From positions 2,048,001 through 2,112,000 of the forward strand of contig OY970343.1 in NCBI GenBank assembly GCA_963717525.1: a stretch of 64,000 nucleotides of DNA, in the 5' to 3' direction. This document shows positions 21,001-30,000 of the stretch, one piece after another. Numbering within the stretch: position 1 is the first letter of the stretch; each line of letters begins with the position of its first letter. This DNA is from an uncultured Methanoregulaceae archaeon (GTDB lineage: Archaea > Halobacteriota > Methanomicrobia > Methanomicrobiales > Methanospirillaceae). A program made the position numbers.

Positions 21001-24000
21001 ACTTCGTACAGGAACGGGGGTGCCGCTCGATGGTTTGCAAAAACAGACCATTAAAAAGATGGCTGGATATTTTTGCCCGGGCCTACGCCATGGGCGGCAT
21101 GGACGGGGCATTCTTGGACTGCGTAATCATCATGTCGTCGACACGGATCAGCATGATGGCAGTCTCGGAGGCACTCTCAATAGACTGGCGCTTTGACCGG
21201 AGCGGTTCAAGCACTCCCTCGCCGAGCATATCGATGATCTCGCCGTTATAGACGTTGAGACCGGCAGTCTTCTTGCCCTTTGCATGGGCGTTCTTGAGCG
21301 CTACCAGCTTGTCGATCGAATTGTACCCGGAGTTCTCTGCAAGAGTACGGGGGATCGTCTCAAAAGCCTTCGCATACCCCTCGATTGCAAGCTGCACACG
21401 GCCTCCGACCGTCTCTGCGTAGTCCCGGATCTTCATCAAAAGCTCGGTCTCGACTGCACCTCCGCCGACAACATAGGTCCCGTCCTCGATTGCGTCCATG
21501 ACCACGCGGGTACCGTCAACGACCGCACGCTCGAGTTCGTCGAGCAGGTAGTCGCTTGTGCCCCGGATGAGGATGGTAATGGCCTTGGGGTTCTTGCAGC
21601 CGGAGATCCGGGTGATGTCGGTGTCGTTGTCCTCTTCGACAACCTCTGCATGACCGAGATCTTTTGCGGTCAGGTCTTCGGGCTTGTTGACAATATTTGC
21701 ATTCAGCGCCCGGGCGGCATACTTGAGATCCTTTTCCGGGACATCCTCAACCGCATAGATGCCGTTCTTGGCAAGGAAGAACTGGACCGGGTCTGCGATG
21801 CCTTTCTGGCAGAACACCACGTTCGCCCCGGCATTAACGATAGCATCGGCGAGCTTCCTCAGGGTTGCCCGCTCCTGTTCGGAGAAGGCAGCAATCTGGT
21901 CGGCAGTCGTGATCTTGATCTTCGCCTTTACCTGCGTTTTTGTGATCTCCATGGGAGTCGCGATGAGCGCGATCCTGGCCGCAGTAACTTTCTTTGGCAT
22001 ATCTTCGCTGACCCGTTTCTTGTCAAGGATGATGCCCCGGACGAGTTCGGCGTCGTTCATCGACCGGCCCTTCTGCTTCTTGATCATCACGTCGTCTTCA
22101 TCGGCGAGGTACTTGCCGTTCGTCTTCTCCGCGATGGCCATCACTGCGTCAACGATGATGCCGTCGAGTTTTTCCTTGACCGATTCGATTGATTTGCCGG
22201 TGATCGCGGTGTCGGCAATCTTCAAGAGCGTCTTTCTGTCCCTGGGATCTACCTTGAAGGAGAGCGCGTCGGTAATTTCGAGCGCCTTTTGCATACCCTG
22301 CCGGTATCCCTGTGCGATTACGGTCGGGTGGATGCCCTGCTCCAGCAGGTCCTCTGCCTGCTCCATCAGCGACCCGGCAATGACAACGGCCGTGGTGGTT
22401 CCGTCCCCGACCTCGTCATCCTGGGTCTTTGCCACTTCGATGACCATCTTCGCACCGGGGTGCTGGACCGAGATTTCCTGTAATATTGTCGCGCCGTCAT
22501 TGGTGATGACAATGTCACCGGTTGAATCGACGAGCATCTTGTCCATGCCCCGGGGGCCCAGCGTTGTCCGGACCGCACCGGCAATCGCTTTTGCGGCCAT
22601 GATATTCGAGCGCTGTGCCTCCTTGCCGGTGTTACGCTCCACATTGTCTCGTAAAATGATGATTGGTTGACCAGATAACATAGGTGATCCTCTAATGCTG
22701 TAAAAGGTGGAATTGAACTTCTATATATATCATTCCCTTAGTGGTTCTGTTGCGTCTTAGGTTGATCGTTGCATTTGCCCCATGCTGTTGCATCGCGGTT
22801 GATATGCGCGCGGGTGTCTTGATGCATTATTCCTATTTTAATAAAAATTATTAAAATAGAAATGGCTATTAGGATTATGAGCTCAATCGAATCATCTTTT
22901 GCTAATGTGTGGGATTCGGTTTGTAAACACGAGGGAGAACTTTTCCATACCAAAACAGGATTGCCATTTACTTACTGGACAAAAGGAACCTCGTTATACG
23001 TCGATAGAACAACATGGGCAATAAATCGCAAAAACCTATTATATGCCTACGGGTTGTGGCCGGTATCTGGACCCGGTGTTTTTAATAATGCTGTTAGAGG
23101 GCCTGCATATGTTTGGGCGATTTTTGCTGATGGTAGGATCATAAAAACCGGAGATTGATATGATTAACGTTATTCTATCGAATTTAGAATCTATCAAGAA
23201 ACGGCATTATGCCCAAAAAGCAAAATCTACCGGTTATTGGGTTGCATTTTATGAAAGTGTATTAAACAGATATAAAGCACAATTCGGAGAGGATTTTAAT
23301 TTAATTATATATGGTGACGAGAATCTCCGAGATGATTTTTTCTCCATTCCTTATATACAACTAAAAGATTTCTTGACAGAACCCCATATAGACGAACAAA
23401 AACGAAGATGGGTTTTCAGCATTGAAAACAACATACTCCGAGCACATCGAAATCCCAAGAGAGTTGATATAATGGAATTTCGTGGGAATATAATTGACAT
23501 TCAACCATTATACCAATATCAAACAGTCAAAGATTTGAATAAACTACAGCAGAGGAAAGAAGATACTTTTCAAAAGGACGCCGAATGGTTAAGCCAAGAA
23601 GAATTGATGAGGCGGATTCAATCGCTAGATAGGGGGGCAACACACAGGGAAGGGACCACAAAATATTATCAAAGAAGAGCGATTGTATCCGAATATGCTA
23701 AGAGAAGGGCAAATGGAATATGTCAATTATGCCAACACCCGGCGCCTTTTGTCGATATAAGGAATAAGCCATATCTTGAAGCCCACCATGTGATTTGGTT
23801 GTCCAGAAATGGGGACGATACACCTGAAAATACTGCGGCATTATGTCCGAATTGCCATAGAAAAATGCACATATTGAATATAACATCTGATCAAGAAATT
23901 ATTTTATCAAGAATTTCTGGTGGGGGAGAATAAACAAAACAGTCCTATTCTCCCCAGTGACCGAATTCAATTAAGTCGCTTAATAAATCAAGACGGCGCT

Positions 24001-27000: not shown

Positions 27001-30000
27001 AAGTTACGGAAGTTCGACCGGATGCGATTGTGACCGATGGACTCATGGCATACAAGGACGCGATAAAGGCAGAATATTTTGGACTCGGCAGAATCCAGAA
27101 CCCCCATATCCGCCTTAAGGACTTTGAAACTAAGCCGAATAACAATATCCTTGAACGCCTGAATGGAACATTCCGAGAGCGCACGAAAGTTATGCGAAGC
27201 TTCGACAGTGGGATTGGCGCGGCGGAATTTGCCGCTGGAATGCAGACATATTACAACTATATCCGCCCCCATCAGGGAATCGGTGGAATGGTACCTGCGC
27301 AGATGGCAAACATTCCACTGGATTTAACCGGTAACCGCTGGATGACAATGATTGGGTTGGCGGTAAAGTGAGCTTTAAAGGAAACGTTTAATATTTTGAT
27401 TTTATAATGTTAATTACAAATATACTGTCTGTTAAGGTGCAAAATTGGATTTTTTTATCGATTCTGGAGTTGTTATAGGGTATTCTGACACAGGGGATGA
27501 AAAATTTCATGACCCATGCAAAGAATTTATAAGAAAATTCCCTCCAAAAGAAAACGGGTATCATTCGATAAAATATATTGTAAATGAAGAAATACGGAGT
27601 ACTGAAAAGAAGAGACTCGAACAAAGAAAGAAAAATGCACTCAAACTATTCCCACAACGTGCGAAAATATTTTGTGATTTAATAAACGATGTTGCAAATA
27701 AATCGCATTTGTCATTTGATACTCTTTTTAAACAAATACATGATTATTTAATAGCGGTTCGTACTGACCTTAAAAGAAAAGAACACGATGCGAAATTGTT
27801 AACGAGTGCTTTTATTTGGGCATATGAAGATGGAACCTTACAAAATCCTCATTTCATTACTACGGATTGGACGGATATTTGTAAAAACAAACCTAAACTT
27901 TATAGTTTTGTAACGTCTTGTCTCCCTAAAAACTGTTTAAAGATAAGTTTTGTTATCGACTGCGTCTCTTAACAGGGTTTTAACAAATTAAGTAACTCTA
28001 TTTTCTCATCTTTATTCATTTGGTTTAAGGATTTTTCAATCTCATAATCCATATCTTCGAGGGTGGGAATTAAATTATATCTTTTCACCTTATCTTTCAG
28101 TGCCGTAAAATTATTGGATAGGCCCTCTATCTTTCTTTGAGAATTGGATTCGTATGCCCCCATCTCATATTCAATATTGTCCCCTTTTAACGTGAGAACA
28201 AATGGGAAAATAAATGTGGATATTTCGTTTTCATACATGTTATTGAAGTCAGAGAGGATTTCTTTTACATGGTTAAAATTGGTGTCTCTGTTTCTACAAA
28301 CCATCAAAACACCTTCAAGTAGATCCATGTAATCAAAATAGAGAGGCAAATATTTTTCGTCAACGTGGTTTAATGTGGAATCGAGATTTGAAATTATATC
28401 CGAAAACGTATCATAGAATTTTCCTATATCAACCTTTTTACATTCTGACGCTTCCCCAATTATATCATGAAAAGCGTCATGCCATTTGTATAATGCTTGA
28501 TATTCTGGGGATATCCTATCCTCGTGTGCATATTTTAAAAATTTTTTCCAAGTTCCTGTCATTATTGGTTTCAAGGTGACGATGATGGGCTTTACCATTT
28601 CAACAATTTCAAAATTCACAATACTTTTGTTGATATTTGCTCCATGAAGAGAGCGCGTTACAAAAATTGGTTTTGTTATGCTATGCGCCTGAAAAGAAAA
28701 TTCTCCATGTTTAAAACACCCGTATGAAATTTGACGATACCCAAGATCTTCAATTGATCTTACAACTAGCTTCACAGCTTTGGTTAGAACAACCTTTTTC
28801 CTTTTAGTGGAATACTCTTCATGAGCGGCAAAAAGGATTGAGTTTATTATAACACTTGGTGGGAGTTTGTTGATATCTTCGATATCCATTTTCCACCCGA
28901 AACTATTGTAGACACATTTCTTGAGAGGATAGATAATCCTTTTGATATAATATTTGATATTAAATAGACGCACTGCTGCCCAATATCTCTTGCTTGCGCG
29001 CGAAGGATCAACCTTCATGCAACACCAACCGACAACCCGGTTGATCCACCGCAGACGCAACAGAACCCCCTTAGTGGCTCTCAGGAAAAAGGAATGGATT
29101 AATCGATACGGGAGATCTTGAAGAGCGAATAGACCGGCACGCCATCAATATCCTTTATGCCGCGCTTGTCGAAAATGACCCATATTGCTACCGGGACTGC
29201 CCCGTGTTTCTTGAGATACTTGACGACCTCCCTCATCGTGTTCCCCGAGGTGATCACGTCATCGACAATAATGCAGCGTTCCTTTGCGACAGGAGCAAAG
29301 TTTCCGCTGATCGACCCGACCGGGTGATCGCTCGTGTTCTGCTTCGAAGGATGGTAGATGGCAAGCTGTGCCGCCTCCTGGACAGAGATGATTGTTGCAA
29401 GGGGAATGCCGGAAAGAGCAATTCCCACGATAACGTCTGCTGAGGCTGATGCCGGGTCTTCCTGTGCACCGTAATACCGGTTTAAGAGCATCAGGGCAAT
29501 CCCGTCAAGCAGCGGCGCCTGGCTGCTCACGGCAGTCCAGTCGATATGGACATCCTTTGGCGCTGCCGCCCCGCCGTTTGCCTGGGTTAAAAGCCAGGTC
29601 ACCGTTTCCATGGAAAGGGAGAGCTCGTCTGCAATCTGGCCGGGGCTGTGGCCTTCGGATAAAAGGAGTTTTGCCCGGGCTATCAGATCATCAAGGGAAG
29701 ACATGAAAAAAGATTTGTGGTAATCTATTTAAGTTTTCGTTTAATTATTGAGCCGCAGACCGGGCATTCCCCGTCGGTTTTGAAATAACGGCCGCAGCCG
29801 CTGCACCGGTATTTCCAGCGGATTTTTTTTGCCGGCCGCTGCTGGAGCGGCTGTACGGGAATTCCGAGGCCGGCCGCTACGTTCTGGATCGCAAAATCGT
29901 CCGTGAATATGGTCGCCCCGAGCTCCCCGGCAAGGGCGAGGATATCGCAGTCGGTACCCGATATCACGGCAAGATCTCCTGACCTCCCTGCAGCAGCATG

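Follow-up and report, generated by a model that had tools for sequence, protein, structure and literature searches.

The window, a stretch of 64,000 nucleotides from an uncultured Methanoregulaceae archaeon, contains at positions 22743–29067 a 6,325-bp transposon with inverted repeats, an 8-bp target duplication, a SWIM transposase and restriction-modification cargo. It belongs to a large lineage of unit transposons in archaea that are IS6-like and carry passengers; the full elements of this lineage insert at a fixed position of BRE-TATA promoters, in either orientation of the element, and leave the promoter intact. The explanation that we regard as probable for the data as a whole is an IS6-like lineage targeted to BRE-TATA promoters, which would capture promoter-bound TBP-TFB and whose 79/92-bp ends would be used in trans. 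A wider proposal is rather unlikely to hold in its entirety: that DDE transposases from two or more archaeal families dock on promoter TBP-TFB, in methanogens preferably where a heat-shock repressor keeps the promoter poised, and that polarised defence arrays thereby grow at safe sites, the same enzymes using the 79/92-bp ends for exchange in an integron-like cassette system of accessory islands.

Overall structure of the window element

The element is bounded by terminal inverted repeats of 25 nt that are 88% alike (22743–22767, plus strand, and 29043–29067, minus strand), and the identical 8-mer CCCTTAGT flanks it on the left (22735–22742, plus) and on the right (29068–29075, plus). The left repeat is of the GGTTCTGTTGCG...GGTTGAT type, which is common to the 79-bp family A of small elements described below. 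Each end contains a second, subterminal end site, on the left a tandem copy 38 bp inward (22786–22803, plus) and on the right at approximately 29007–29024 (minus); among the full elements of the lineage such a site is present in 207 of 230 ends, against 4 in shuffles.

The cargo comprises an HNH endonuclease resembling type IV methyl-directed restriction endonucleases (23160–23933, plus; Pfam HNH; PADLOC mREase_IV, E 2e-18), an MjaV-like type II restriction endonuclease (24359–24964, minus; PADLOC REase_II, E 3e-17), of which the homologue P0193 bears the NCBI name MjaV, and an N4/N6 DNA methyltransferase (24986–25843, minus; Pfam N6_N4_Mtase; PADLOC MTase_II, E 2e-121). Four passenger ORFs are without family match: 98 aa (22862–23158, plus), 132 aa (23945–24343, minus), 175 aa (27445–27972, plus) and up to 363 aa (27969–29060, minus). 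A 60-aa AbrB/MazE-like ORF (25853–26035, minus; Pfam MazE_antitoxin, E 3e-6) is divergent from the transposase gene. Homologues of this ORF occur in 24 of 115 elements and in 0 of 115 control flanks, and it is probably a regulator of the transposase.

The transposase (26187–27371, plus; 394 aa) consists of a SWIM domain (residues ∼1–90), a Zn ribbon, an HTH and a DDE core, in which D220, D284 and E323 are conserved. It matches Pfam DDE_Tnp_IS240 with 55 bits (cut-off 27), and its best NCBIfam match is IS6 with 113.6 bits, under the equivalog cut-off of 125; the IS256 model gives 42.9 bits, under its cut-off of 150, so that a Mutator/IS256-type assignment fails. The AlphaFold model (pLDDT 89.7) shows an integrase/transposase fold in structure comparisons (Z ∼15). 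The top Foldseek match is ISCth4, with a TM-score of only 0.35–0.42, and a search of the ESM Atlas returned generic SWIM clusters only. The terminal repeat, GGTTCTGTTGC, has the GG tip, the G at position 7 and the cTGTt motif of IS6/IS26. The genome-wide survey's note had described a 6.3-kb element with restriction-modification cargo, an 8-bp target duplication and an IS6-type transposase with a SWIM zinc finger, all of which the repeats, flanks and domain matches bear out; the second full element that it had placed at contig positions 1834962–1838924 is likewise flanked by a duplication, TCTTAAAA.

The calling of full elements required an exact 8-mer target duplication, and 115 elements were kept of 117, after removal of a duplicate definition in L148 and a 13.5-kb chance pair in L217. 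They measure 2–11 kb (median 3.85 kb) and 112 of them carry passengers, largely restriction-modification and other defence genes, as judged by PADLOC on the 109 longest of the 170 passenger ORFs of at least 180 aa. No excision or circle joint was found in four contig sets, a kind of data that cannot prove absence.

Insertion at BRE-TATA promoters

The target of the window element is the host thermosome promoter. The thermosome (TCP-1/cpn60) gene (21083–22681, minus; Pfam Cpn60_TCP1, E 4e-172) is preceded by a TATA box (22722–22729, minus) that is conserved in relatives, faces away from the element and lies 13 bp from its tip; the BRE region, −1 to −7 of the TATA box as judged from the logo of target flanks, occupies 22730–22736 (minus). 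The promoter stays whole because the two outer BRE bases fall in the target duplication. Positions −3 and −6 of the BRE are important according to passages of PMC5512572. On the other side of the element lies a host HTH-phosphoribosyltransferase gene (29099–29704, minus; Pfam), which at empty sites directly adjoins the thermosome promoter, with a gap of 15–36 bp in relatives. The site is unoccupied in 27 of 29 relatives.

The same geometry recurs across archaea: a BRE-TATA promoter faces away from the element, and the 8-bp duplication spans its positions −13 to −6. Of 104 sites, 59 have the TATA consensus, which was chosen after the first flanks had been seen, at offset 13 with at most one mismatch, related genomes being counted although they are not independent; every other offset has it in 0–7, with 2 and 0 matches at the adjacent offsets 12 and 14. 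After orthologous promoters are merged, 40 of 84 sites retain the match, against a background of 1.1%; even a two-mismatch TATA is missing at offset 13 in 16 of the 104. The offset was first noticed on three ends and then recurred in loci from Bathyarchaeia and Nitrososphaeria that were examined later. Together with the polarised stacking described below, this placement is the strongest signal of the data, and the survey's note had overlooked it. Elements lie in both orientations relative to the promoter (48 versus 38). The direction of the promoter itself is fixed, as follows from the asymmetry of the BRE in 65 target flanks (T is present at −11 in 46 and at the mirrored position in 13; a pyrimidine is present at −8 in 59, against 38).

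Target preference differs between host groups. In Methanoregulaceae the targets are nearly always promoters of thermosome, Hsp20, CDC48 or ArsR/HSR1-like regulator genes, and heat-shock families make up 14 of 19 scanned target ORFs of the Methanoregulaceae type; among all 72 scanned targets, 27 code for chaperones, the proteasome or ArsR. Bathyarchaeia elements use housekeeping promoters. A CTAAC-N5-GTTAG-like box occurs in 13 target flanks, and thermosome promoters, the commonest targets, are absent among the HSR1-box matches.

Most likely, the transposase captures promoters that are already bound by TBP and TFB, the transpososome picking its target on the bent, factor-bound promoter. A repressor of the Phr/HSR1 type (motif and Phr mechanism in parts of PMC9133787) may hold TBP-TFB at heat-shock promoters without RNA polymerase, and these promoters may be favoured for that reason. 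The housekeeping targets of Bathyarchaeia, the lack of thermosome promoters among the HSR1-box matches and the 16 sites without even a two-mismatch TATA at offset 13 count against this reading. Alternatively, direct recognition of the BRE-TATA sequence or of its bendability by the transposase could suffice without any host protein. This would agree with the target logo, which has information at the TATA box and at BRE positions −3, −4 and −6, and with passages of PMC3942029 that report a preference of ISH6 for an AT-rich motif; moreover, the cut lies inside the BRE, the binding place of TFB, and TFB and transposase may therefore not fit together. However, the octamer recognised changes with the host lineage, the heat-shock bias of the Methanoregulaceae targets is hard to obtain from sequence alone, and three transposase types use three different offsets (13, 15 and ∼18) to the same box, which makes direct reading unlikely.

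These offsets also bear on the role of the SWIM domain. Unrelated IS5-like elements, which have the SWIM module alone in common with the lineage, show TATA at offset 15 in 8 of 19 sites with at most one mismatch and in 13 of 19 with at most two (a single-sequence fold of the SWIM-IS5 protein, with pLDDT 37, was unusable). Relatives without SWIM have TATA at 13–14 in all seven TSD-bounded units, the remaining 14 of the 21 loci giving no such unit, and for plain 700-bp IS6 copies from high-GC genomes the peak lies at 18 (14 of 27), with a motif chosen after the flanks had been seen; one plain IS6 with 11 copies has no fixed TATA offset. Since SWIM-less and plain IS6 relatives keep a fixed offset, SWIM is not required, and its candidacy as the necessary targeting module is ruled out.

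Tandem arrays at reused sites

Where one site is used repeatedly, tandem arrays arise that have a common 8-mer and the intact unit on the promoter side. An adjoining end with a common duplication is found for 42 of the 115 elements. Junctions were scanned with a pattern that excludes TATA in 30 archaeal loci, 10 of which do not close; 33 of the 63 loci, labelled non-archaeal, were left out, one of which (L127) duplicates an archaeal locus. By eye count, 15 arrays are one-sided, with one side closed to a free flank and the opposite side not closing at all; in all 15 the closed side is the TATA-like flank. A single reverse-type case, L078, belongs to the arrays that close to another junction.

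Elements of the IS30/IS911 type target existing ends (cited in PMC7986276), and insertion beside a resident end, rather than reuse of the promoter, would give the observed order of right end, 8 bp and left end. Nevertheless, this origin is very unlikely, as the duplication-closed unit lies on the TATA side in every one-sided array, with L078 as the one reverse-type case, and first insertions at empty sites already obey the promoter rule. Random insertion followed by survival of those copies that spare genes and promoters, for which the scarcity of harmless sites in compact genomes and the restriction of all data to fixed insertions could be adduced, is extremely improbable in view of the single-base precision of the offset and of one thermosome promoter that holds nine different elements with nine different duplications.

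Small elements and cargo islands

The genome also contains small gene-less elements with end types that match those of the full elements. At least three families are distinguished, with 24, 17 and 11 HMM matches at E<1e-3 in this genome, partial copies included (controls: best E 0.59, none and 1.3), and an exact 12-mer of the ends occurs 10 times versus 0 in an order-5 Markov genome. Both tips are present in 47 elements, 28 of which measure 77–80 bp and 13 of which measure 91–94 bp. The two sizes in the survey's note are thus real, but its division into two families of 11 copies each is not, and its identity range of 57–86% becomes 49–89%. The median identity is ∼63%, yet tips and length are conserved; two copies, L495 and L496, are identical and young. 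The elements resemble MITEs in having both partner-type ends, no ORF and a short fixed length. The lack of target duplications noted in the survey holds: a match of at least 6 of 8 positions is found for 0 of the 47 copies in this genome, and a duplication for 0 of 36 copies from other genomes. Its term hairpin is misleading: complementarity of the arms drops to 0.4 at positions 15–16 and to ∼0.2–0.5 (one position 0.69) past position 24, a pattern that fits a predicted two-part protein-binding site and led us to reject a hairpin or RNA-structure function.

In a pattern scan, 31 of 151 family genomes match versus 4 with a control pattern, some of the matches being due to chance. Among 67 small-element flanks, TATA lies at offset 13 in 9, versus 0–3 at other offsets, and 58 are without the signature. 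One small element occupies a cdc48 promoter that is also a target of full elements, and L509, a degenerate 85-bp candidate exception to the missing duplications, is located at the target site. Apart from one false call, no small element was found inside a full element.

The small elements cluster in accessory islands, with 41 of 58 gaps under 10 kb versus 13 expected, and adjoining copies are of different families and mixed orientation. Annotation agrees with the cargo labels of the survey (DUF4013, AhpC/Bcp, FMN reductase, CODH). Its placing of duplicate boundaries at ends holds in part: 17 of 1544 boundaries lie within 15 bp of an end versus 2.8 expected, an expectation that is low because duplicates and ends both cluster in islands. 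A 1,049-bp duplicate of 97% identity ends exactly at the tip of a partial element, each of the two copies of the Bcp cargo is bordered by tips on either side, several junctions at tips are one-sided, and other junctions lie at dif-like sites. Such dif-like 9-6-9 palindromes number 20 at up to two mismatches versus 0 in a Markov control, and bound a 1.7-kb thiC duplicate at both ends. Tyrosine recombinases occur in the same islands, with integrases at the island edges. No composite pair of small elements with a common outer duplication was found in this or other genomes, and a composite transposon of two small elements was rejected.

An IS26-like cassette role is only partly supported. The 79/92-bp elements may be minimal ends, non-autonomous and with a single site in each arm, on which the transposase would act in trans in one-ended or replicative events such as adjacent deletion and flank exchange; these would eliminate the duplications while tips stay behind at the edges of cargo, with a separate dif-like/integrase system probably working alongside in the same islands. 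The survey had likened the small elements instead to IS26 translocatable-unit arrays; on that model a small element plus adjacent cargo forms one unit, and targeted conservative integration would build the islands as arrays of such units. The missing duplications, the junctions at tips of the 1,049-bp duplicate and the Bcp cargo, the recurrence of fixed sizes across genomes and the short gaps keep this a tentative but serious possibility. On the other hand, neighbours differ in family and orientation and have no shared outer duplication, dif-like sites and tyrosine recombinases lie in the same islands, flanks show no cross-matches beyond chance, and the copies are far from uniform, whereas, going by the title of a work cited in PMC7986276, targeted integration by IS26 requires the reacting ends to be identical. 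It is more doubtful that the small elements are mostly passive relics and that tyrosine recombinases acting on dif-like palindromes move the cargo. The dif-like sites, the thiC duplicate and the edge integrases would fit, but several junctions lie exactly at tips without a palindrome, and neither the conservation of tips and length nor the young copies are those of relics.

Comparison with known systems

Yeast Ty3 and the bacterial TnGBS and ISLre2 are known cases of integration guided by promoters. For archaea we found no report in the open-access literature, although ISfinder and supplements may list such elements. If the favoured reading is true, the lineage offers a simple prokaryotic system for how a transposase reads the TBP/TFB machinery common with eukaryotes, explains the build-up of restriction-modification and other defence genes at fixed archaeal chromosomal spots without an integrase, and provides a natural safe-harbour insertion tool for methanogens. 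Insertion sites would then also map promoters in uncultured lineages.

Ty3, a eukaryotic retroelement at Pol III genes, has its DDE enzyme placed by TFIIIB, a general transcription factor complex that contains TBP, and the protein contact with the factor is shown. The likeness to Ty3 (PDB entry 7q5b) lies in this placement, which we infer for the archaeal enzymes; here, in contrast, a DNA transposon is found at protein-coding promoters and contact with the factor would be of a predicted kind. At attTn7 sites of Tn7 and in integron arrays, insertion is likewise at a safe site and cargo accumulates with polarity at a single locus. The archaeal arrays share these features, but without a TnsD-like or integrase partner and at a class of promoters rather than at one sequence.

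The bacterial Mutator-like TnGBS ICEs, ISLre2 and ISKra4 likewise insert at a fixed distance upstream of the core promoter, 15–17 bp, sparing the gene (passages of PMC3942029). Unlike the present elements, which are IS6-like, use BRE-TATA promoters in both orientations and form tandem defence arrays, they are of the Mutator/IS256 type and use sigma-A promoters mostly in one orientation.

Likeness to IS6/IS26 comprises a DDE core that scores best to IS6 models, the terminal motifs and the 8-bp duplication (parts of PMC7986276 and PMC6807381). IS6 family members, however, have a single ORF of 213–254 aa in ∼800 bp, in contrast to the 394-aa transposase with SWIM and Zn ribbon, the much longer elements with passengers and the two tandem sites per end seen here. 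Movement in the family is defined as cointegrate-only (copy-in) plus targeted conservative. Passages of the same two sources list MITEs and one passenger-carrying member, and the parts of these reviews that treat IS6/IS26 make no mention of fixed promoter targeting; PMC6807381 makes the case for excluding archaeal members from the family. At 79 and 92 bp, the small elements would be the smallest IS6-type ends, the two MITEs on record measuring 227 and 336 bp. With IS26 translocatable units they share ends at cargo edges without duplications and clusters of accessory genes, but arrays of IS26 consist of copies of a single IS in direct orientation (sections of PMC7986276), whereas the units here are transposase-less, 79–92 bp long, of several families and in mixed orientation, and cargo is not surrounded by directly repeated copies of one element.

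Window element and its copies in the genome

The window element (window 22743–29067, contig 2070743–2077067) is an insertion, because the corresponding thermosome-promoter site is empty in 27 of 29 genus relatives (26 identified by script and one, falsely flagged, read by eye), the promoter there lying 15–36 bp from the next gene. Of the remaining two relatives, one has the locus at a contig edge, and the other carries ∼85 bp that open with the window element's type of end, at precisely the position where the window element starts. The element has 25-bp inverted repeats, is flanked at both ends by the target duplication (TSD) CCCTTAGT, and has a GC content of 39%, compared to 58–59% for the flanks. 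The transposase it encodes has 394 residues and combines SWIM, Zn-ribbon, HTH and DDE parts. The other genes specify an HNH nuclease, a restriction endonuclease/methyltransferase pair of type II, a 60-residue AbrB/MazE-like protein and four proteins without an assigned family. These features confirm the intact 6.3-kb IS6-type element with restriction-modification (R-M) cargo reported in the genome-wide survey's note. The second intact element, at contig 1834962–1838924, has a transposase 76% identical to that of the window element and a further end directly behind its TSD. The AbrB/MazE-like gene (window 25853–26035) is divergent from the transposase gene and is common to IS6-like, IS5-like and SWIM-less elements.

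Both intact elements reside at thermosome promoters. Solo ends are present at contig 414303 and 2177530, the former at the promoter of an ArsR regulator gene; the region 411823–414303, with a 770-residue methyltransferase behind this end and the partner end absent, is a decayed element. Extra thermosome paralogues are found at contig 1733727–1735376 and 1872746–1873043, one of them 54 bp from an island element of family A, a family of small gene-less elements.

Insertion with a constant spacing to the TATA box

The initial observation, made at three ends, was of a TATA-like octamer lying 13 bp away from the tip. Loci were then gathered by protein and by a tandem-junction pattern containing no TATA; the 220 that bear a transposase yielded 117 distinct elements bounded by a TSD, two of which were dropped. 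The TATA consensus occurs at offset 13 in 59 of 104 free-flank sites with at most one mismatch, and in 88 with at most two, while any other offset accounts for 0–7 sites at one mismatch. With each promoter cluster counted once, the fraction is 40/84, against a background of 1.1%. Since TATA boxes are nearly symmetric, promoter direction was set by the BRE, of which positions −3 and −6 are the main determinants according to an excerpt of PMC5512572. These positions are conserved on the element side in 46 and 59 of 65 cases, versus 13 and 38 for their mirror positions; the target promoter therefore reads away from the element, and the TSD spans −13 to −6. The transposase may be oriented either way relative to the promoter (48 versus 38, with 29 elements lacking an assignment). 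Named hosts include Methanoregulaceae, Methanotrichaceae, Methanocellaceae, Bathyarchaeia, Nitrososphaeria and Asgard records.

The 72 downstream ORFs scanned include those of thermosomes (10), proteasomes (6), Hsp20 (4), ArsR-type regulators (4) and CDC48 (3), as well as ribosomal proteins, TFB, RpoB and many products without a family. Heat-shock families make up 14 of the 19 ORFs scanned first, which are of Methanoregulaceae type, and two more share the cdc48 promoter flank. A CTAAC-N5-GTTAG-like box is present in 13 target flanks, none of which belongs to a thermosome promoter. This box corresponds to the HSR1 motif in an excerpt of PMC9133787, where Phr is described as keeping RNA polymerase off the TBP/TFB complex.

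Element arrays and cargo

Of 115 full elements, 42 adjoin another end via a common 8-mer, and one thermosome promoter is occupied by nine different elements across nine genomes. Among 30 archaeal junction loci, with closures counted by eye, 15 reached a free flank at just one of their two sides, every one at a TATA-like flank, which fits a growth of arrays at the promoter side while older units decay. Two loci closed on both sides, three onto further junctions (one with a non-TATA free flank), and ten showed no closure. A passenger ORF is present in 112 of the 115 elements, and by hand count 51 of the 109 longest passenger ORFs matched PADLOC models with an E-value of 1e-15 or lower, most of these matches being to R-M. 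A second tandem site lies 28 or 38 bp inward at 207 of 230 full-element ends, versus 4 in shuffles.

The same junction pattern was observed in one Chlamydiae bin, with GGCATGCC separating the ends in every case, and in a Bacillus genome (loci L081, L082, L092, L099 and L090, L105). No transposase match was found at these loci, which probably represent another repeat.

Small elements

Hidden Markov models built from oriented seeds matched 24 copies of family A (∼79 bp), 17 of family B (∼92 bp) and 11 of family C (79–80 bp) at E < 1e-3, with none below E 0.5 in a Markov-genome control. A probable fourth family of 79–80 bp with GGTTCTGTTAAC...GGGAT arms is located at contig 798079, 1140023 and 1277162, and also in the compared genomes G124, G057 and G092; in G124 two identical, inverted copies lie 18 kb apart without TSD. 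Thus, the sizes of 79 and 92 bp given previously hold, but not the number of two families. The earlier claim that the small elements lack target duplications is borne out, as no TSD was found at the 47 elements of this genome that keep both tips (best match 5/8), nor at 36 elements of other genomes. They cluster in islands of accessory genes (41 of 58 gaps below 10 kb versus 13 expected), are mostly intergenic, and are mixed in family and orientation. The arms are of the same end types as in full elements, with a single site per arm; a second tandem site was found in none of 134 small-element ends. Arm complementarity drops at positions 15–16, which suggests a two-part protein site instead of a selected hairpin; the earlier description had spoken of hairpin MITEs. 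In family B (e.g. contig 509280–509371) the left arm is followed by a conserved centre whose first bases, TTTAAATA, resemble a BRE-TATA and might serve as a portable promoter.

A TATA box at offset 13 flanks 9 of 67 small elements, versus 0–3 at other offsets, and one small element lies at the cdc48 promoter that full elements use, with no matching TSD partner. Some of the small-element junctions were therefore probably made by the enzyme that moves the full elements, in one-ended or replicative events. The survey's note instead regarded small elements and cargo as IS26-like translocatable units, with the small elements at the edges of duplicated cargo, a model that we consider tenable but somewhat doubtful. 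Some inspected junctions do lie exactly at small-element tips, including that of a 97% identical 1-kb unit; over all duplicate boundaries, 17 of 1544 are no more than 15 bp away from an end, and other duplicates, with cargo including thiC, are bounded by 9-6-9 palindromes (TTCCTTTWA-N6-TWAAAGGAA). That the small elements are passive relics appears rather unlikely.

The 9-6-9 palindromes, which we take to be dif-like, number 20 at up to two mismatches versus 0 in the control, and are found, among others, at contig 121527, 123223, 136880, 137607, 152362, 1117678, 1120063, 1121759, 1273845 and 1306118. Tyrosine recombinase genes adjoin them at island edges, and together they possibly form an archaeal dif-module or integron-like cassette system.

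Targeting mechanism

An IS5-like transposase of this genome (contig 287429–288661) is encoded in an element with a 9-bp TSD (287167–290207). Its residues 1–83 share 54% identity with the SWIM module found in an IS6-like family member, the rest being unshared. Among the units of its relatives, 8 of 19 have a TATA box at offset 15, or 13 if two mismatches are allowed, and the BRE signal is present as well. The element itself is a cargo transposon that, besides this SWIM-IS5 fusion, has sites repeated in its subterminal parts and a gene for an AbrB-like protein. The occurrence of SWIM in both transposases with a fixed TATA offset suggested it as the targeting module; a necessary role is countered by two controls. 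SWIM-less Zn-ribbon relatives have TATA at 13–14 in all seven TSD-bounded units from 21 loci examined (one in very AT-rich DNA), and plain 700-bp IS6 copies from high-GC genomes (L398–L414, L436–L458) show a TATA-core peak ∼18 bp from the tip in 14 of 27 cases, for a motif picked post hoc. A length of 700 bp is listed for haloarchaeal ISH elements in an excerpt of PMC6807381. No TATA peak was found for an 11-copy IS6 element of another genome. From the two controls, targeting therefore extends beyond the lineage of the window element, and it may be common in archaeal IS6.

We moderately favour a putative capture of TBP/TFB-bound DNA by the transposase over its direct reading of the promoter sequence, which we regard as improbable. 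The genome has four genes for TBP and two for TFB. One TBP-TFB pair (contig 502415–504202) and another TBP (1293237–1293815) are located in islands rich in small elements.

Comparison with known systems

The original observation is real, though partly misread, and represents a form of promoter-targeted transposition, for which no archaeal report was found in the open-access literature. The landing rule is of more interest than the MITE reading. The window element works like TnGBS/ISLre2, as described in part of PMC3942029, and like Ty3 (PDB 7q5b). It is IS6-like, yet falls outside the IS6 family in size and curated score; according to an excerpt of PMC6807381, archaeal members would be excluded from that family, for which PMC7986276 records a pair of MITEs, 227 and 336 bp long, and a single member that carries passengers.
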